NCBI GenBank assembly: GCA_017883315.1
Contig: JADGNW010000121.1
Coordinates: 1-38,814, forward strand
DNA: 38,814 nt
Source of the DNA: Blastocatellia bacterium
Lineage (GTDB): Bacteria; Acidobacteriota; Blastocatellia; UBA7656
Direction of reading: 5' to 3'
The position numbers and the translations under genes are program-made. Below, piece after piece: positions 12,424-38,814 of the stretch (position 1 is the stretch's first letter; each line of letters starts with the position of its first letter). The notes below the pieces were generated by a model, which worked only from the letters and a program-made list of their open reading frames with translations, had not been told where the DNA came from and searched no databases.

Positions 12424-13032
12424 TTGGCTGGCTTTGCGGGAATCGCAGCGGCGGGCAAGAGCATCGAGATGTTGCTTAACGCGTGCTTCGAGGATTTTCA
12501 GCCTCTACAGCCGCCCGACACCGCCAAGAAGACGAAAGCCAAGTTGGTGCACACTGTTGATTTCGAGCGTGGCAAAGTCGCAACCAGCCTCCCGTCGCCG
12601 GCATTGTCGATCTTTCTGTACCGCGTCGATTTCAACAAAGTTATGCGCGCTGCCTGGTCGGGTGCATCGAGCCAGGATGGACGTTCACATCTGGGACTGG
12701 ATCTGCACTATCTGATTACGCCGTGGGCCGAGAACGCCGAAGACGAGCATCTCATCCTCGGCAGAGCGATGCAGTGCATTGAAACGACGCCGATCCTGAG
12801 TGGCCCGTTGTTGCACTCTTCGGGCGAGTGGGATGCCGGCGAATCTATCCAGTTGGTGCTCGAAGAGATTTCAACCGAAGCGGTCATGCGCATGTTCGAT
12901 TCGCTGCCGACCGATTACCGATTGAGCGTGCCTTACATCGCTCGCGTCATGCGATTGGATGGGCGCGTAGCAACGCCTGAAGGTCCGGTGGCCACTGCGA
13001 TCATCGGAGCAGTGCCGACAACAGTGTTATGA
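12424..13032 (+). CDS. DUF4255 protein: Afp16/Pvc16-like tail terminator (cap)
   Basis: TTG start with GGAGGA 7 nt upstream. The motifs LSIFLYRVDFN and LDLHYLITPW are characteristic of DUF4255. First gene of the operon. Confidence 0.85.
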   Translation: MAGFAGIAAAGKSIEMLLNACFEDFQPLQPPDTAKKTKAKLVHTVDFERGKVATSLPSPALSIFLYRVDFNKVMRAAWSGASSQDGRSHLGLDLHYLITPWAENAEDEHLILGRAMQCIETTPILSGPLLHSSGEWDAGESIQLVLEEISTEAVMRMFDSLPTDYRLSVPYIARVMRLDGRVATPEGPVATAIIGAVPTTVL

Positions 13033-13877
13033 ATCAGTTCCTGTCCAGCCGCTACGTCGAAGTGATTCAGCGTCTCGCGCTGGGCATCGAGCCAATTGAC
13101 GCCCAGAGCGCCAGGCGGTTGAGCTATGCTCTTCAGGTCGTGTATGACGTGGCGCCTTTCGGCAAGCGGCGCCCGCCTATCGAGCGGCACGCCTCCAATC
13201 TTTACGCGTTGCGTTATCAGCCCGGCGTGACTGAACAAATTGATGTGCGCTTCTTCGATTTGTCAGAGCGCTCTTACAAGCCTGAGTACGATCGCCGCCG
13301 CGTTGTGCCGCGGCGCCTGAGCATTCCGATCCTTACTCTCGACGATGTCGAAGAGCAGGAACTGCAAGAAGCTGAGGCTGCCGGTAAACAAGCAAAAGAT
13401 TTTCGACGACGCATACGCCGTCCGGTCTTTTTCCCCGGAGCGGCTTATGACTTCATCGCGACGGCTACCGGGCTACGGGGCCGTGTCATGCGCGGCGGCA
13501 AGCCGATGCGTTGGGCGCGCGTGGTCGCGACATTGGGTACAACTGTCGTCGGCCGCGCACACGGTGACGATCGGGGCGAGTTTCTTTTGCTAATCAATGC
13601 GAAGGTGGCGACGGTCACCGCTGTGCCAAAGCCACTCGAAATCACAGTCTCGGTCTTCGCTCCAAAGGATGCGCCAACGCCGGTCCCCGCCAATCTCCCT
13701 GAACTTGATCCCTTGTGGGACTTGCCATTGGAGAAGCTTGCCGAGCCGGGCGAAATCGATCCGGTCGCAGCCGGCGAGCGGCCTCCATGGGAGGAGACAA
13801 AGAGCGTCACTCGAGTTGTGACATTCATTCCGGGAGAGTGTCTTTCCGGAGAAGAGGATTTCGTGATCACCACCTAG
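13029..13877 (+). CDS. CIS-associated protein of unknown function
   Basis: 282-aa ORF with an ATGA overlap onto the cap gene. One segment (LRGRVMRGGKPMRWARVVATLGTTVVGRAHGDDRGEFLLLI) resembles a carboxypeptidase-regulatory-like beta-sandwich motif. Confidence 0.7.
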   Translation: MNQFLSSRYVEVIQRLALGIEPIDAQSARRLSYALQVVYDVAPFGKRRPPIERHASNLYALRYQPGVTEQIDVRFFDLSERSYKPEYDRRRVVPRRLSIPILTLDDVEEQELQEAEAAGKQAKDFRRRIRRPVFFPGAAYDFIATATGLRGRVMRGGKPMRWARVVATLGTTVVGRAHGDDRGEFLLLINAKVATVTAVPKPLEITVSVFAPKDAPTPVPANLPELDPLWDLPLEKLAEPGEIDPVAAGERPPWEETKSVTRVVTFIPGECLSGEEDFVITT

Positions 13878-38400: not shown

Positions 38401-38814
38401 GTCGGCGACGTGTCCTTCGATCAGGGGACGGCTACGGTAGCCGGCAACAGCCTCGCGCCAGTTGTAAACACCTTGAAGACGCAGGGTGGGATTCCCGTGG
38501 CCGCGCTGGTCGTCTCAGGATCCGGTGACTCCGCTGCGAACGTAGCGGCCCACAAAGCTCAAGCAGAAGCGATAATGAGTGCGCTCGGGCCATCGACGAT
38601 CACAGTGGATGCGGTTAGTATCCCGGTGCCTTCACTGGTAGGTTGCCCCGCGATTACGTTCATTCAGTTTTCCTCGAGTGCAGTTGTAGCCGACAAACCA
38701 GCGCAGCAGGTATTACCGAAGGCCGACATCCCGGCGGCGACGAATAAAACAACGAAGGCAAAGACAAACACGGGCCGAGCAAAGCCCGCCGCGCGACGCA
38801 AGCGAAAGAAGTAA
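35428..38814 (+). CDS. Large unknown protein, paralogue B (1128 aa), with a beta-rich Thr/Ser/Gly/Val middle and a strongly basic C-terminal tail
   Basis: AAGGAGAGG SD. The N-terminal domain is shared with paralogue A. The central region is rich in short beta-type segments (VTAPGASAVTGQLSVVGVAILKTGTTPTTT...). The protein ends TKAKTNTGRAKPAARRKRKK, with the stop at 38812-38814 (window end). Confidence 0.8.
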   Translation: MPTIDSSETLVLVSQQNGLVIIPSSTPLTRLNYFDGKFLRAADLQTEQEYLRQLVEQSNQASGSGVARGFDLTLGSGDTLNIGAGLAIDPGGRVLLLPQSVTLNTQELIDKSRELQASLARPISAAAGGFETCEPTSTTPPANLIPASDLYLIVLSQAEALCGEEDVFGKLCEEACTTSTDRPFLLEGVIVRAIPLVLGTPLPTSTAVPLTATHLRSRVASAYFEDERRVIASLISRAGLALQTWCLGANPAAGNGVPIGVLARAGATTVFLDAWTARRELINTGAERYWRWRMMMRPWDVFLAQILQFQCQLRDLFRSTPVPAGDVAPCGGALGAVNEAAAAVTELQQFYESTTTRFADLRVPIDDSMTFAGGSTRLAALGTRLAGVSQALAAAPRDSVLINGGIVELPSAGYLPVVPGAGATINQQVHQLMGDGVDLRFCVVRPDYVAHALEEAQHMERISLVYGLDHPGDKPRVDILVPDGTILEVARAGLRNGFETQLTLLPLLGGLLNPTFTEARAVIQPSQVFHGVTRMAVLPDGGGAMYSAGFIPASQFIFDQISVFEIGAAAAQERAIVRSPGPTFGYWLELNSDKNVFAMSQNEVSSVSGRAIIAETASSGSVFVDLRVWGQFRVTAPGASAVTGQLSVVGVAILKTGTTPTTTQAKSLNLVTRVALSSPIAGGSRVGVTVQAVSGTDVFFSAEWGKDPITANGGVTTSGSSTVAATSELHPNPDVYQVTNARHGQAISGLQVVGSALADAGFVNTASNLLFPPLPPASDELIVRGTRDWVLFHRRRTKQCAVEVKAPPMPPPRQYAVYHLALTDDGGKLSSQLAEVKAWLNGGDVSAPPFVPVVDVEFQGGVASLISDPAAIRTDWSAKNPGNTLLYGAIASTPAAAAEGDDLASSRLAQIEMVVSSSSPPAATIVSELLPAVPRSPVVAGPDGVIVLVTARPVPVCHTVARMIDGASIGRINKGSTSGDLATISNKLANKVGDVSFDQGTATVAGNSLAPVVNTLKTQGGIPVAALVVSGSGDSAANVAAHKAQAEAIMSALGPSTITVDAVSIPVPSLVGCPAITFIQFSSSAVVADKPAQQVLPKADIPAATNKTTKAKTNTGRAKPAARRKRKK

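Follow-up and report, generated by a model that had tools for sequence, protein, structure and literature searches.

A contractile injection system operon of subtype IIb-like gene content on the chromosome of an uncultured acidobacterium

Positions 12424-38814 on the plus strand of an acidobacterial contig encode a contractile injection system (CIS) of the Afp/PVC superfamily (eCIS lineage) that belongs to its non-Afp/PVC branch and is neither a prophage nor a canonical T6SS. As a whole, the locus is best explained as the structural operon of a lineage II, subtype IIb-type CIS on an acidobacterial chromosome, a reading that we hold with slightly better than even confidence. ORF calling gives an unbroken array of 19 tightly packed co-directional genes, possibly with a 20th, all on the plus strand; neighbouring genes overlap by 4-14 nt at six junctions and the largest intergenic gap is 189 nt, which bears out the preliminary description of about 19 co-directional, overlapping genes. 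The window, that is, the whole stretch of DNA analyzed (38,814 nt), is an entire 38,814-bp MAG contig, and its last triplet is the stop codon of the final gene. Protein families were assigned by Pfam matches well above curated cut-offs. Several longest-ORF starts lay too early and were refined (sheath 2, 16367; tube 2, 18402; hub, 20687; the transmembrane protein, 22446; Cis13a, 33907).

The first 12 kb of the window contain chromosomal housekeeping genes, namely those for a ROK kinase, LepA, TonB, an ECF sigma factor and anti-sigma factor, a TPR protein, MsrA and a tRNA-Met, the last about 840 bp upstream of the array. The host is an uncultured soil-type Acidobacteriota bacterium related to Blastocatellia/Pyrinomonadaceae, with the array on its chromosome; judged by TonB, it is diderm.

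The array opens with the gene for a Cis16/Afp16-type cap, the tube/sheath terminator (202 aa; 12424-13032; Pfam Pvc16_N (DUF4255), E 5.8e-29), which likewise comes first in the related loci L081 and L083. Afp/PVC clusters start with tube and sheath genes and finish with the cap (afp1 to afp16). Joined to the cap gene by an ATGA overlap is a gene for a conserved lineage-specific protein of 282 aa (13029-13877) with no match in Pfam, NCBIfam, PHROGs or PDB; L081 and L083 carry a gene for 256-281 aa at the same position. Sheath 1 (Cis2, 616 aa; 13908-15758; Phage_sheath_1 and Phage_sheath_1C) and tube 1 (Cis1, 151 aa, probably the main tube; 15783-16238; Phage_T4_gp19, E 4e-34) are followed by a second pair. 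Sheath 2 (16367-18397; Phage_sheath_1C and Phage_sheath_1) has 676 aa from its refined start, which was set by a 676-aa homolog in L081, and is a paralog 27% identical to sheath 1 over its full length, N- and C-terminal strands included. Tube 2 (Cis1b/Cis5-like, 167 aa, probably a tube initiator layer; 18402-18905; Phage_T4_gp19, E 8.6e-31) is 34% identical to tube 1 and also matches CIS tube proteins in the PDB. The solved sheaths nearest to sheath 1 in the PDB are Halogeometricum borinquense Cis2 (9ezm, 362 bits) and Streptomyces Cis2 (8bky/8bl4, 349/342 bits), whereas the lineage I sheaths of Afp, PVC, AlgoCIS and tCIS score at most 175 bits.

Next in the array is a Cis7/Afp7-like tube initiator (468 aa; 19000-20406), which matches Pfam CIS_tube at residues 3-150 (E 8.5e-24) and continues after this N-terminal tube domain into an Ala/Ser/Gly-rich tail of about 310 aa. 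Afp7, Pvc7 and Alg7 align with it over residues 11-170 only, no LysM domain is detected in it at E <= 0.01, and CIS_tube is the sole Pfam match of its homologs in relatives (precomputed hits). The tube initiator of the preliminary description is recovered, but not its LysM domain; the accompanying statement that every core tail part is present stands for the cap, sheaths, tubes, gpD, gpV, gp25, gp6/J, gpI/gp7 and ATPase. Between cis7 and the hub gene lies a small conserved ORF (56 aa; 20524-20694) that overlaps the hub start by 8 nt and has homologs of 56-58 aa at the corresponding site of L081, L083 and L087; its product is a candidate Afp6/Cis6-type plug. The gp27/gpD-like baseplate hub (361 aa; 20687-21772; Phage_GPD, E 1.3e-10), whose start fits 361-aa homologs in relatives, and the gp5/gpV-like spike (224 aa; 21769-22443; Phage_base_V, E 6.5e-24) correspond to the first and second halves of a split Afp8 and are encoded by separate genes with a 4-nt overlap. 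The 56-aa gene, a 552-aa hairpin protein and two Cis13-like proteins had been overlooked in the preliminary description.

The 552-aa protein is encoded between spike and gp25 (22446-24104), with its stop codon overlapping the gp25 start, and is the only strongly hydrophobic product of the cluster, carrying a hydrophobic hairpin at ORF residues of about 410-455. Its family comprises more than 966 homologs, none with a Pfam domain, and 1,154 representatives at 50% identity; the architecture is uniform, always about 450-620 aa, and the hairpin sequence hardly changes from phylum to phylum. Each hairpin helix is short, at about 16-17 residues. Lys and Arg occur on both flanks of the hairpin, so that both soluble parts of the protein would face the cytoplasm. 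The N-terminal region of about 350 aa is confident in an AF2 model, and no fold match was found in the PDB or BFVD at E <= 1e-3. This conserved protein implies a membrane-associated step. A possible, if doubtful, view is that the PAAR-less IIb lineage has in it a membrane device of its own, structural and associated with the baseplate or spike. The protein could dock the baseplate on the inner membrane from the cytoplasmic side; the system, if so, would be a T6SS-like contact-dependent weapon without TssJLM in at least ten bacterial phyla. Alternatively, the protein could ride on the particle and, in the manner of a fusion peptide, insert its hairpin into the target membrane, replacing PAAR. 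Either option, if true, would be a CIS mode of action so far undescribed.

The remaining baseplate genes encode the gp25/Cis9 sheath initiator (129 aa; 24101-24490; GPW_gp25, E 7.6e-25), a single-copy Cis11/Afp11, the gp6/J-like wedge (715 aa; 24497-26644; Baseplate_J, E 7.7e-13), and Cis12/Afp12, the gp7/I-like wedge (750 aa; 26648-28900; Tail_P2_I), which also matches NCBIfam CIS12_fam (E 1.8e-38, under that model's cut-off). The solved protein nearest to Cis11 in the PDB is Streptomyces coelicolor Cis11 (9gtp, 190 bits); AlgoCIS scores 26 bits. A 511-aa protein follows (28893-30428) with no match in Pfam, NCBIfam, PHROGs or PDB. Its residues of about 7-190 and 362-511 are kept in relatives, and the middle differs in length. 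The gene does occupy the tape-measure (Afp14) position, as previously described, and the label has that position as its sole basis. The AAA+ ATPase at the Cis15/Afp15 position (677 aa; 30415-32448; AAA, E 1.1e-25) has a winged-helix domain; its position is kept in all 80 related loci, and it is an Afp15 ortholog as judged by domain and position only.

Three further proteins complete the array. An Ala/Lys/Asp-rich accessory protein (474 aa; 32463-33887) is probably helical, a coiled coil to judge from its sequence; it has no family match in Pfam, NCBIfam or PHROGs and is poorly conserved, with 27-50% identity where detectable and absence from some loci (for example, L017, L022, L087). Cis13-like protein a (443 aa; 33907-35238; NCBIfam CIS13_fam, E 1.2e-10, far under the cut-off) is kept in 80/80 loci, and its N-terminus is paralogous (E 4e-9) to that of Cis13-like protein b (1128 aa; 35428-38814; CIS13_fam, E 6e-6, under the cut-off). 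In the 189-nt gap between them, an uncertain 47-aa ORF (35282-35425) resembles a 54-aa gene called in L086; it may be non-coding because its counterpart is found in a close relative only. Cis13b, a candidate target-binding fiber, is full length because its C-terminal tail aligns with that of P0122, and homologs occur in 80 genomes from many phyla. Its N-terminal part of about 490 aa is conserved and includes an invariant Cys cluster; its C-terminal half diverges fast and in close relatives is swapped for DUF11/CLIPPER and CARDB-type Ig-like arrays. This swap to adhesin-type arrays is seen even where the hairpin protein of the relative is 87% identical, and is the pattern expected of a receptor-binding protein. 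Cis13b itself has no fold match in the PDB and no binding domain recognizable by Pfam or PDB searches.

The locus had been called complete; the term is overstated because the contig stops at the last stop codon while relatives continue into DUF4157/eCIS_core genes. One to four such effector genes lie directly 3' of the array in 49/60 related loci, closest relatives included, and multiple toxin paralogs occur among them; DUF4157 is a known eCIS toxin marker (PMC8213781). No DUF4157/eCIS_core gene is present in the 38,814-nt window, and the cargo module has almost certainly been cut off by the contig end. The earlier remark that the cargo cannot be read from known domains is true here only because the cargo genes fall off the contig; in relatives the cargo consists of recognizable DUF4157/eCIS_core proteins.

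All eight core eCIS components of Chen et al. (Afp1/5, 2/3/4, 7, 8, 9, 11, 15 and 16; PMC6899500) are present, Afp7 by its N-terminal tube domain, with LysM not detected. The pairing of DUF4255 with an Afp15-type ATPase, already taken as typical of the eCIS lineage, is upheld by the matches of both proteins. The cap-first, dual-sheath, dual-tube order is also confirmed as a non-Afp/PVC layout; it is not little-known, since it is widely conserved and fits a defined subtype. At least ten phyla, cultured strains included, share this order, with examples in Acidobacteriota, Gammaproteobacteria and Verrucomicrobiota; gene order is identical in Plasticicumulans (L083), Verrucomicrobiae (L087) and close relatives (L081), and the second half of the array is kept in 80 loci.

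Gene content matches that of eCIS subtype IIb in lacking PAAR/afp10, in having one afp11, in dividing afp8 between gp27 and gp5 ORFs, and in the divergence of afp12 and afp13; the subtype also retains afp6 (PMC6899500). This assignment is by gene content; bit scores against PDB entries narrow the placement to lineage II and no further. No cluster protein has a Pfam match to PAAR, and there is no room for an unscanned PAAR gene because no intergenic gap exceeds 189 nt. There is one Baseplate_J gene, Phage_GPD and Phage_base_V are in separate genes, and afp12 (Tail_P2_I, CIS12_fam) and afp13 (two weak CIS13_fam matches) are divergent, their NCBIfam scores lying under the cut-offs. As in IIb, a small gene occupies the afp6 position and there are extra subtype-specific genes without known domains; nothing contradictory to the published definition of IIb (PMC6899500) was found.

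Measured by PDB bit scores, the similarity of the sheath and of Cis11 to lineage II systems is about double, or more, that to lineage I systems. The CIS of S. coelicolor (CIS-Sc, subtype IId; 8bky, 9gtp) gives the top score for Cis11 and, after 9ezm, the second score for the sheath, and it also has two tube-type proteins (Cis1a and Cis1b). However, the present locus differs in having two sheaths against the single sheath gene of CIS-Sc, a split spike against an unsplit VgrG-like Cis8, and two Cis13-like genes where CIS-Sc has neither Cis13 nor fiber genes; it also lacks the PAAR of CIS-Sc and has a hairpin membrane protein between spike and gp25. The membrane protein of CIS-Sc, CisA, differs in architecture and position, being bitopic with a periplasmic C-terminal domain and encoded at the fiber position (PMC12237407). 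The T6SS-like CIS of H. borinquense (subtype IIa; 9ezm) has the best-scoring solved sheath, a split afp8, Cis12/Cis13 and a conserved membrane protein tied to its cluster (PMC11566945). Unlike the present locus, IIa has two cis11 genes and PAAR but no cis6; the putative anchor of H. borinquense has six transmembrane helices and lies beyond the core block, and the host is an archaeon with an S-layer rather than a diderm bacterium. Afp/PVC (Ia) and AlgoCIS/Anabaena tCIS (Ib) share the same core parts, including Afp15 and Afp16 equivalents; multiple sheath paralogs are found in Afp and PVC, and DUF4157 cargo occurs in lineage I too. Similarity to lineage I is nevertheless much lower, and there Afp7 carries LysM and Afp8 is unsplit and PAAR-capped.

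By homology, tube 1 is wrapped by a contractile sheath made of sheath 1 and its paralog sheath 2 and closed by the DUF4255 cap. The baseplate likewise has tube 2 and the Cis7 N-domain as its tube-initiator layers and further comprises the gp27 hub, gp5 spike, gp25, Cis11 and Cis12; the AAA+ ATPase is at the Afp15 position. The particle would assemble in the cytoplasm, where the ATPase may aid assembly and cargo loading and the 511-aa protein may set length or help assembly. At the edge of the baseplate would lie the two Cis13-like proteins, the larger of which (1128 aa) would make target contact through its variable C-terminal half, and sheath contraction would drive spike and tube into another cell. 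The cargo they carry would be DUF4157/eCIS_core-headed toxins, encoded directly downstream in relatives and missing here because the contig ends. No member of subtype IIb is known to have been imaged or purified, so that all functional steps are inferences. We favor action on other cells through a fiber-like binder, that is, a released extracellular particle, and give this roughly even chances.

Several observations run against a released particle. The nearest characterized relatives by sequence act inside the producer: the Streptomyces CIS is cytoplasmic and depends on CisA, encoded in its cluster (PMC12237407), and the Halogeometricum CIS is membrane-anchored (PMC11566945). It is not easy to reconcile a soluble released particle with a baseplate-module protein whose hydrophobic hairpin is close to invariant. 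Furthermore, no lysis or release genes were seen, Cis13b lacks a recognizable binding domain here, and Cis13-family proteins can be membrane feet instead of fibers (PMC12210884). A membrane-anchored, contact-dependent CIS firing from inside the producer, like T6SS subtype iv/haloarchaeal T6SS, is a tentative alternative, in which the 552-aa protein would hold the baseplate at the inner membrane, on its cytoplasmic face, and the Cis13-like proteins would serve as feet. The translational coupling of the hairpin gene between spike and gp25, its standing as the sole strongly hydrophobic operon product, its basic flanks with soluble parts that would both be cytoplasmic and its uniform family are consistent with such an anchor, as are the lack of lysis genes, the nearest solved sheath and the correlation of a conserved membrane protein with the T6SS mode in H. 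borinquense. However, near-invariant transmembrane sequence is rare in simple anchors, the helices of the hairpin are short, the locus, from a diderm host, encodes no component that spans the periplasm, and hypervariable adhesin-like Cis13b C-termini in relatives would be odd if they touched the producer's own membrane. A free cytoplasmic CIS that kills or remodels its stressed producer, as in Streptomyces, with the hairpin protein as a CisA-like membrane trigger, is unlikely. The sheath and Cis11 are close to those of CIS-Sc, which requires a membrane protein from its own cluster, and its Chloroflexota and Deinococcota relatives are likewise cytoplasmic; but CIS-Sc has no Cis13 or fiber and has an unsplit Afp8 with PAAR, whereas one of the two Cis13-like genes here is diversifying. 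The different build and gene position of CisA, and the multiple DUF4157 toxin paralogs of relatives, suggestive of an arsenal against other cells, also speak against it.

A remnant myovirus prophage tail or R-type tailocin is highly improbable. The sheath, tube, gp25, J, I and V proteins derive from phage tails and a tRNA-Met gene lies close upstream, but the DUF4255 cap, the AAA+ ATPase and the DUF4157 effectors of relatives are CIS hallmarks. Pfam searches of the 38,814-nt window gave no match to capsid, portal, terminase, integrase, holin, TssJLM, ClpV, VipA/B or Hcp families, in agreement with the gene absences first described, and no lysis genes were seen in it. None of the 10 proteins scanned matched a PHROGs phage family, the tRNA region has no att-like repeat, and GC3 inside the cluster resembles that outside it. 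Head, terminase or lysis genes downstream, which had been named as the sign of a prophage, were not seen in close or distant relatives, where Pfam annotation covers part of the genes and the DUF4157 effector genes are followed by unrelated chromosomal genes. The CIS reading stands, and the prophage reading is refuted as far as the data reach. A canonical T6SS (i-iii) has a negligible probability: the logic of contractile sheath, tube, spike and gp25 is common to both, but the sheath matches Phage_sheath_1 and not VipA/VipB (TssB/C), the tube matches gp19 and not Hcp, TssJLM, TssK, TssA and ClpV are missing, and Afp11/Afp16-type genes, absent from T6SS i-iii, are present. Domain searches thus refute it.

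Subtype IIb was defined from genomes in 2019 (Chen et al., PMC6899500), and a literature search turned up no member that had been purified, imaged or put to a functional test. The locus adds an acidobacterial example to this widespread branch, catalogued from genomes, in which one fixed 19-gene architecture is common to soil and aquatic bacteria of many phyla and includes three to four conserved proteins of unknown fold as well as the membrane-hairpin protein in the baseplate block. The locus itself is an ordinary representative that ends before the cargo genes, and it is not the best entry point. The question of a released, anchored or cytoplasmic system is testable because carriers of the architecture include culturable strains: Plasticicumulans lactativorans DSM 25287, Aliiglaciecola lipolytica E3, Hyalangium versicolor H56D21, Caulobacter sp. 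BE254 and Pseudomaricurvus alcaniphilus.

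The genes from 12424 to the last base of the window form an unbroken plus-strand array whose products match Pfam families for a cap (Pvc16_N/DUF4255), two sheath proteins, two gp19-type tube proteins, a CIS_tube (Afp7 N-domain) protein, a Phage_GPD hub, a Phage_base_V spike, gp25, Baseplate_J, Tail_P2_I and an AAA ATPase with a winged-helix domain. The E-values of these matches span 1e-8 to 1e-34, so they are not due to chance. At the level of sequence they show the contractile core of a contractile injection system (CIS), and the core parts named in the preliminary description (cap, two sheaths, two tubes, hub, spike, gp25, J, I and ATPase) are confirmed by Pfam. 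We regard the locus as a genuine structural operon of a IIb-type CIS of lineage II, well preserved and most likely cut off before its effector genes. When gene starts were refined against called genes in relatives, six junctions overlapped by 4-14 nt and the widest gap was 189 nt. The two sheaths are full-length paralogues with 27% identity, and the two tubes share 34% identity. The Afp7-like gene and the hub are separated by a conserved gene of 56 aa (20524-20694), which also occurs in three related loci (L081, L083 and L087) and whose conservation extends to Gammaproteobacteria. With it the genes number 19, or 20 if a possible ORF of 47 aa in the last gap is counted. Exact-sequence look-ups of tube 1 and of Cis13b, the last protein of the array, returned no match.

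Several proteins differ from their first assignments. No LysM domain was detected in the tube initiator, contrary to the first account; in this 468-aa Cis7-like protein, matches to Afp7, Pvc7 and Alg7 are confined to residues 11-170. Its residues ~150-468 (19450-20406) form a tail of ~310 aa, Ala/Ser/Gly-rich, low in complexity and loosely repetitive, which stands in place of the LysM domain of Afp7-type proteins; homologues in relatives are 458-484 aa long. The 511-aa protein labelled a tape measure occupies the appropriate position but matches no library, and the label is positional only; its ends are conserved and its middle is variable. The last two genes had been left without a known family, yet their products, Cis13a (443 aa) and Cis13b (1128 aa), both weakly match NCBIfam CIS13_fam and share an N-terminal domain. 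Searches of the array's unknown proteins against PHROGs and NCBIfam gave no match except weak ones to CIS12 and CIS13, and a PDB sequence search with the 282-aa, 552-aa, 511-aa, 443-aa and 1128-aa proteins gave no meaningful match.

Compared with every sequence in the PDB, sheath 1 reaches 362 bits with Cis2 of Halogeometricum borinquense (9ezm, clade IIa) and 349 (8bky) and 342 bits (8bl4) with Cis2 of Streptomyces (IId), versus at most 175 bits with the Afp, PVC, AlgoCIS and Anabaena sheaths. Sheath 2 shows a similar pattern, and Cis11 scores 190 bits with Streptomyces coelicolor Cis11 versus 26 bits with that of AlgoCIS. These scores place the locus in lineage II. Gene content separates the subtypes of this lineage: only IIb is without afp10/PAAR and only IIb retains afp6, alongside a single afp11, an afp8 that is split, and divergent versions of afp12 and afp13 (PMC6899500). 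The locus agrees with IIb in every gene-content feature that can be tested and is assigned to this type by gene content rather than by a tree, with the 56-aa gene as the putative afp6. The cap-first, dual-sheath, dual-tube layout described as unusual is indeed present but is the standard of a widespread lineage, because Plasticicumulans lactativorans DSM 25287 (L083), a MAG from Verrucomicrobiae (L087) and the close relative L081 all have exactly this complete order: cap, 282-aa protein, sheath, tube, sheath, tube, Cis7, small gene, hub, spike, hairpin protein, gp25 and so on. The IIb kind is already catalogued bioinformatically, and the window adds a further member; our literature search turned up no experimental study of IIb or of an acidobacterial CIS. 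A study of hot-spring CIS (PMC12998442) was rejected as an account of the present lineage, as it deals with Chloroflexota IId systems.

When one genome per species was scanned with the 1128-aa protein, 80 loci were recovered, from Acidobacteriota, Verrucomicrobiota, Planctomycetota, Gemmatimonadota, Chloroflexota, Myxococcota, Actinomycetota and Alpha-, Beta- and Gammaproteobacteria. The order gp25, Cis11, Cis12, 511-aa protein, ATPase, (variable gene), Cis13a, Cis13b is kept in all 80. Directly downstream, 49 of the 60 loci with enough DNA carry one to four genes that run in the same direction and belong to one family; their proteins have a conserved N-terminal leader followed by PF13699 eCIS_core (DUF4157) and then variable C-terminal parts, for example Het-C or annexin. 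DUF4157 is an established eCIS toxin marker (PMC8213781). The closest relatives, L085 and L086, likewise have DUF4157 effector genes, followed by unrelated opposite-strand genes including a BTAD regulator. No DUF4157 gene was found in the window by tblastn with four DUF4157 proteins, and the window ends at the Cis13b stop codon; thus, the cargo module was most likely lost at the contig end, and the locus, first taken to be complete, probably is not. Truncation of the last gene was rejected: Cis13b ends in a Lys-rich tail that can be aligned with that of the protein P0122, and it is judged from this alignment to be full length. Where the downstream DNA of relatives is annotated, it holds no head, terminase or lysis genes, in keeping with the original reading of the locus. 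As far as they go, the data exclude a prophage, a tailocin and a canonical T6SS.

The DNA beyond Cis13b in relatives holds further features. In L001, four tandem DUF4157 paralogues (13798-22197) share a conserved N-terminal leader of ~130 aa (...NP.WQSLALRPAGIQ.KL.VSQPGDPYEQEAD...) that precedes an HExxH-type domain; this leader is a candidate packaging signal for the lineage. At least six related loci have, after the large Cis13-like gene and ahead of the DUF4157 effectors, a gene of one family of ~440-460 aa (L014 13885-15270, L085 13943-15307 and equivalents in L017, L025, L031 and L034), and the two members checked, those of L014 and L085, are LGT-like (PF01790, prolipoprotein diacylglyceryl transferase family). 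Within a CIS cluster, an acyltransferase-type membrane protein is a puzzling component. In L086, the closest annotated relative, the BTAD-domain regulator gene (18732-19607, minus strand) lies just beyond the effector genes; the equivalent region would fall past the end of the window's contig. BTAD regulators have been noted beside eCIS operons (PMC8213781).

Cis13b (35428-38814) combines a conserved and a divergent half. Its N-terminal ~490 aa (35428-36900) are conserved, with invariant cysteines C162, C172, C176, C311, C330 and C442 and a W/R-rich motif, YWRWRMMMRPW. These features suggest a metal site or disulfides, a point that bears on whether Cis13b ever leaves the cytoplasm. The C-terminal half shows 25-39% identity or is swapped for DUF11/CLIPPER, CARDB or other Ig-like arrays, even in a genome whose hairpin protein is 87% identical. 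The structural model of Cis13b has a mean pLDDT of 70, and Foldseek found nothing in the PDB at E <= 1e-3.

The 552-aa hairpin protein (22446-24104), encoded between the spike and gp25, contains a strongly hydrophobic stretch of ~45 residues that the preliminary description missed. It has more than 966 homologues, none with a Pfam domain, and its family comprises 1,154 representatives at 50% identity, nearly all of 450-620 aa. The hydrophobic segment ICSFSIPLITIVATFVFKLFLPVVTLLFGLFFLLKLKF hardly varies across an alignment of 40 sequences with 41-88% identity, which is odd for a mere anchor. AlphaFold2 predicts with confidence a beta-rich domain at the N-terminus, bearing a long helical hairpin; the mean pLDDT of the model is 72.7, with ~85-92 over most of residues 10-330 and low values for the hydrophobic part. 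Foldseek searches of the PDB and BFVD with this model gave nothing at E <= 1e-3. Across the Foldseek searches with this model and that of Cis13b, weak matches to efflux-pump adaptor and beta-barrel folds were discarded, their query-normalised TM-scores being 0.05-0.14. Basic residues flank the hydrophobic stretch on both sides, from which we infer that both soluble parts lie on the same, probably cytoplasmic, side.

The hub and spike would be the platform for particle assembly, and tube 2 and Cis7 would form initiator layers, as in the S. coelicolor system; tube 1 would polymerise within a sheath of one or both paralogues, and the cap would end the structure. The ATPase may help in assembly and in loading of DUF4157-headed cargo, and Cis13b may touch the target. 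The diversification of Cis13b argues for recognition of foreign surfaces, so release of the particle to act on other cells is the favoured mode, held with about even confidence. The presence of the hairpin protein and the intracellular life of the nearest characterised relatives leave room for a membrane-anchored, T6SS-like mode, a possible but doubtful reading; a cytoplasmic mode like that of Streptomyces is improbable. The points of interest concern the lineage more than the window: what the hairpin protein does in a system that lacks PAAR, what the second sheath is for, and how the particle acts. Each could be tested in cultured carriers, among them P. lactativorans DSM 25287 and Aliiglaciecola lipolytica E3.

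The window spans the whole of a 38,814-bp contig from a metagenome-assembled genome, and its closest relatives carry the names Acidobacteriota, Blastocatellia or Pyrinomonadaceae. Its first 12.4 kb are ordinary chromosome, encoding a VTT-domain protein, ROK kinase, DUF4258 toxin, LepA, TonB-C protein, ECF sigma factor, zf-HC2 anti-sigma factor, TPR protein, MsrA and tRNA-Met; the presence of TonB indicates a diderm host. The tRNA-Met(CAT) gene (11508-11582, minus strand) precedes the cap gene by ~840 bp. The window holds no second copy of any 16-mer from the tRNA region, and GC3 is 0.70 inside the CIS cluster versus 0.67 outside. Thus, there is no clear island signature, and a recently acquired tRNA-linked island is unsupported. 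The LepA (EF4) gene (3847-5649, plus strand) is broken by an in-frame TAG at 4450-4452 within a well-conserved stretch (...IFDS*FDSYRG...), at what we take from E. coli LepA to be a conserved Trp codon. A single TGG to TAG change is likely, and could be a nonsense mutation or a sequencing error or mark a pseudogene. At 1863-2386 (plus strand), a 90-aa ORF adjoins the DUF4258/BrnT-like toxin gene (E 7e-13), and the two are probably a type II toxin-antitoxin pair. The ECF sigma factor, zf-HC2 anti-sigma factor and TonB C-terminal domain protein lie side by side at 6100-8548 (minus strand), in what looks like a cell-surface signalling module.
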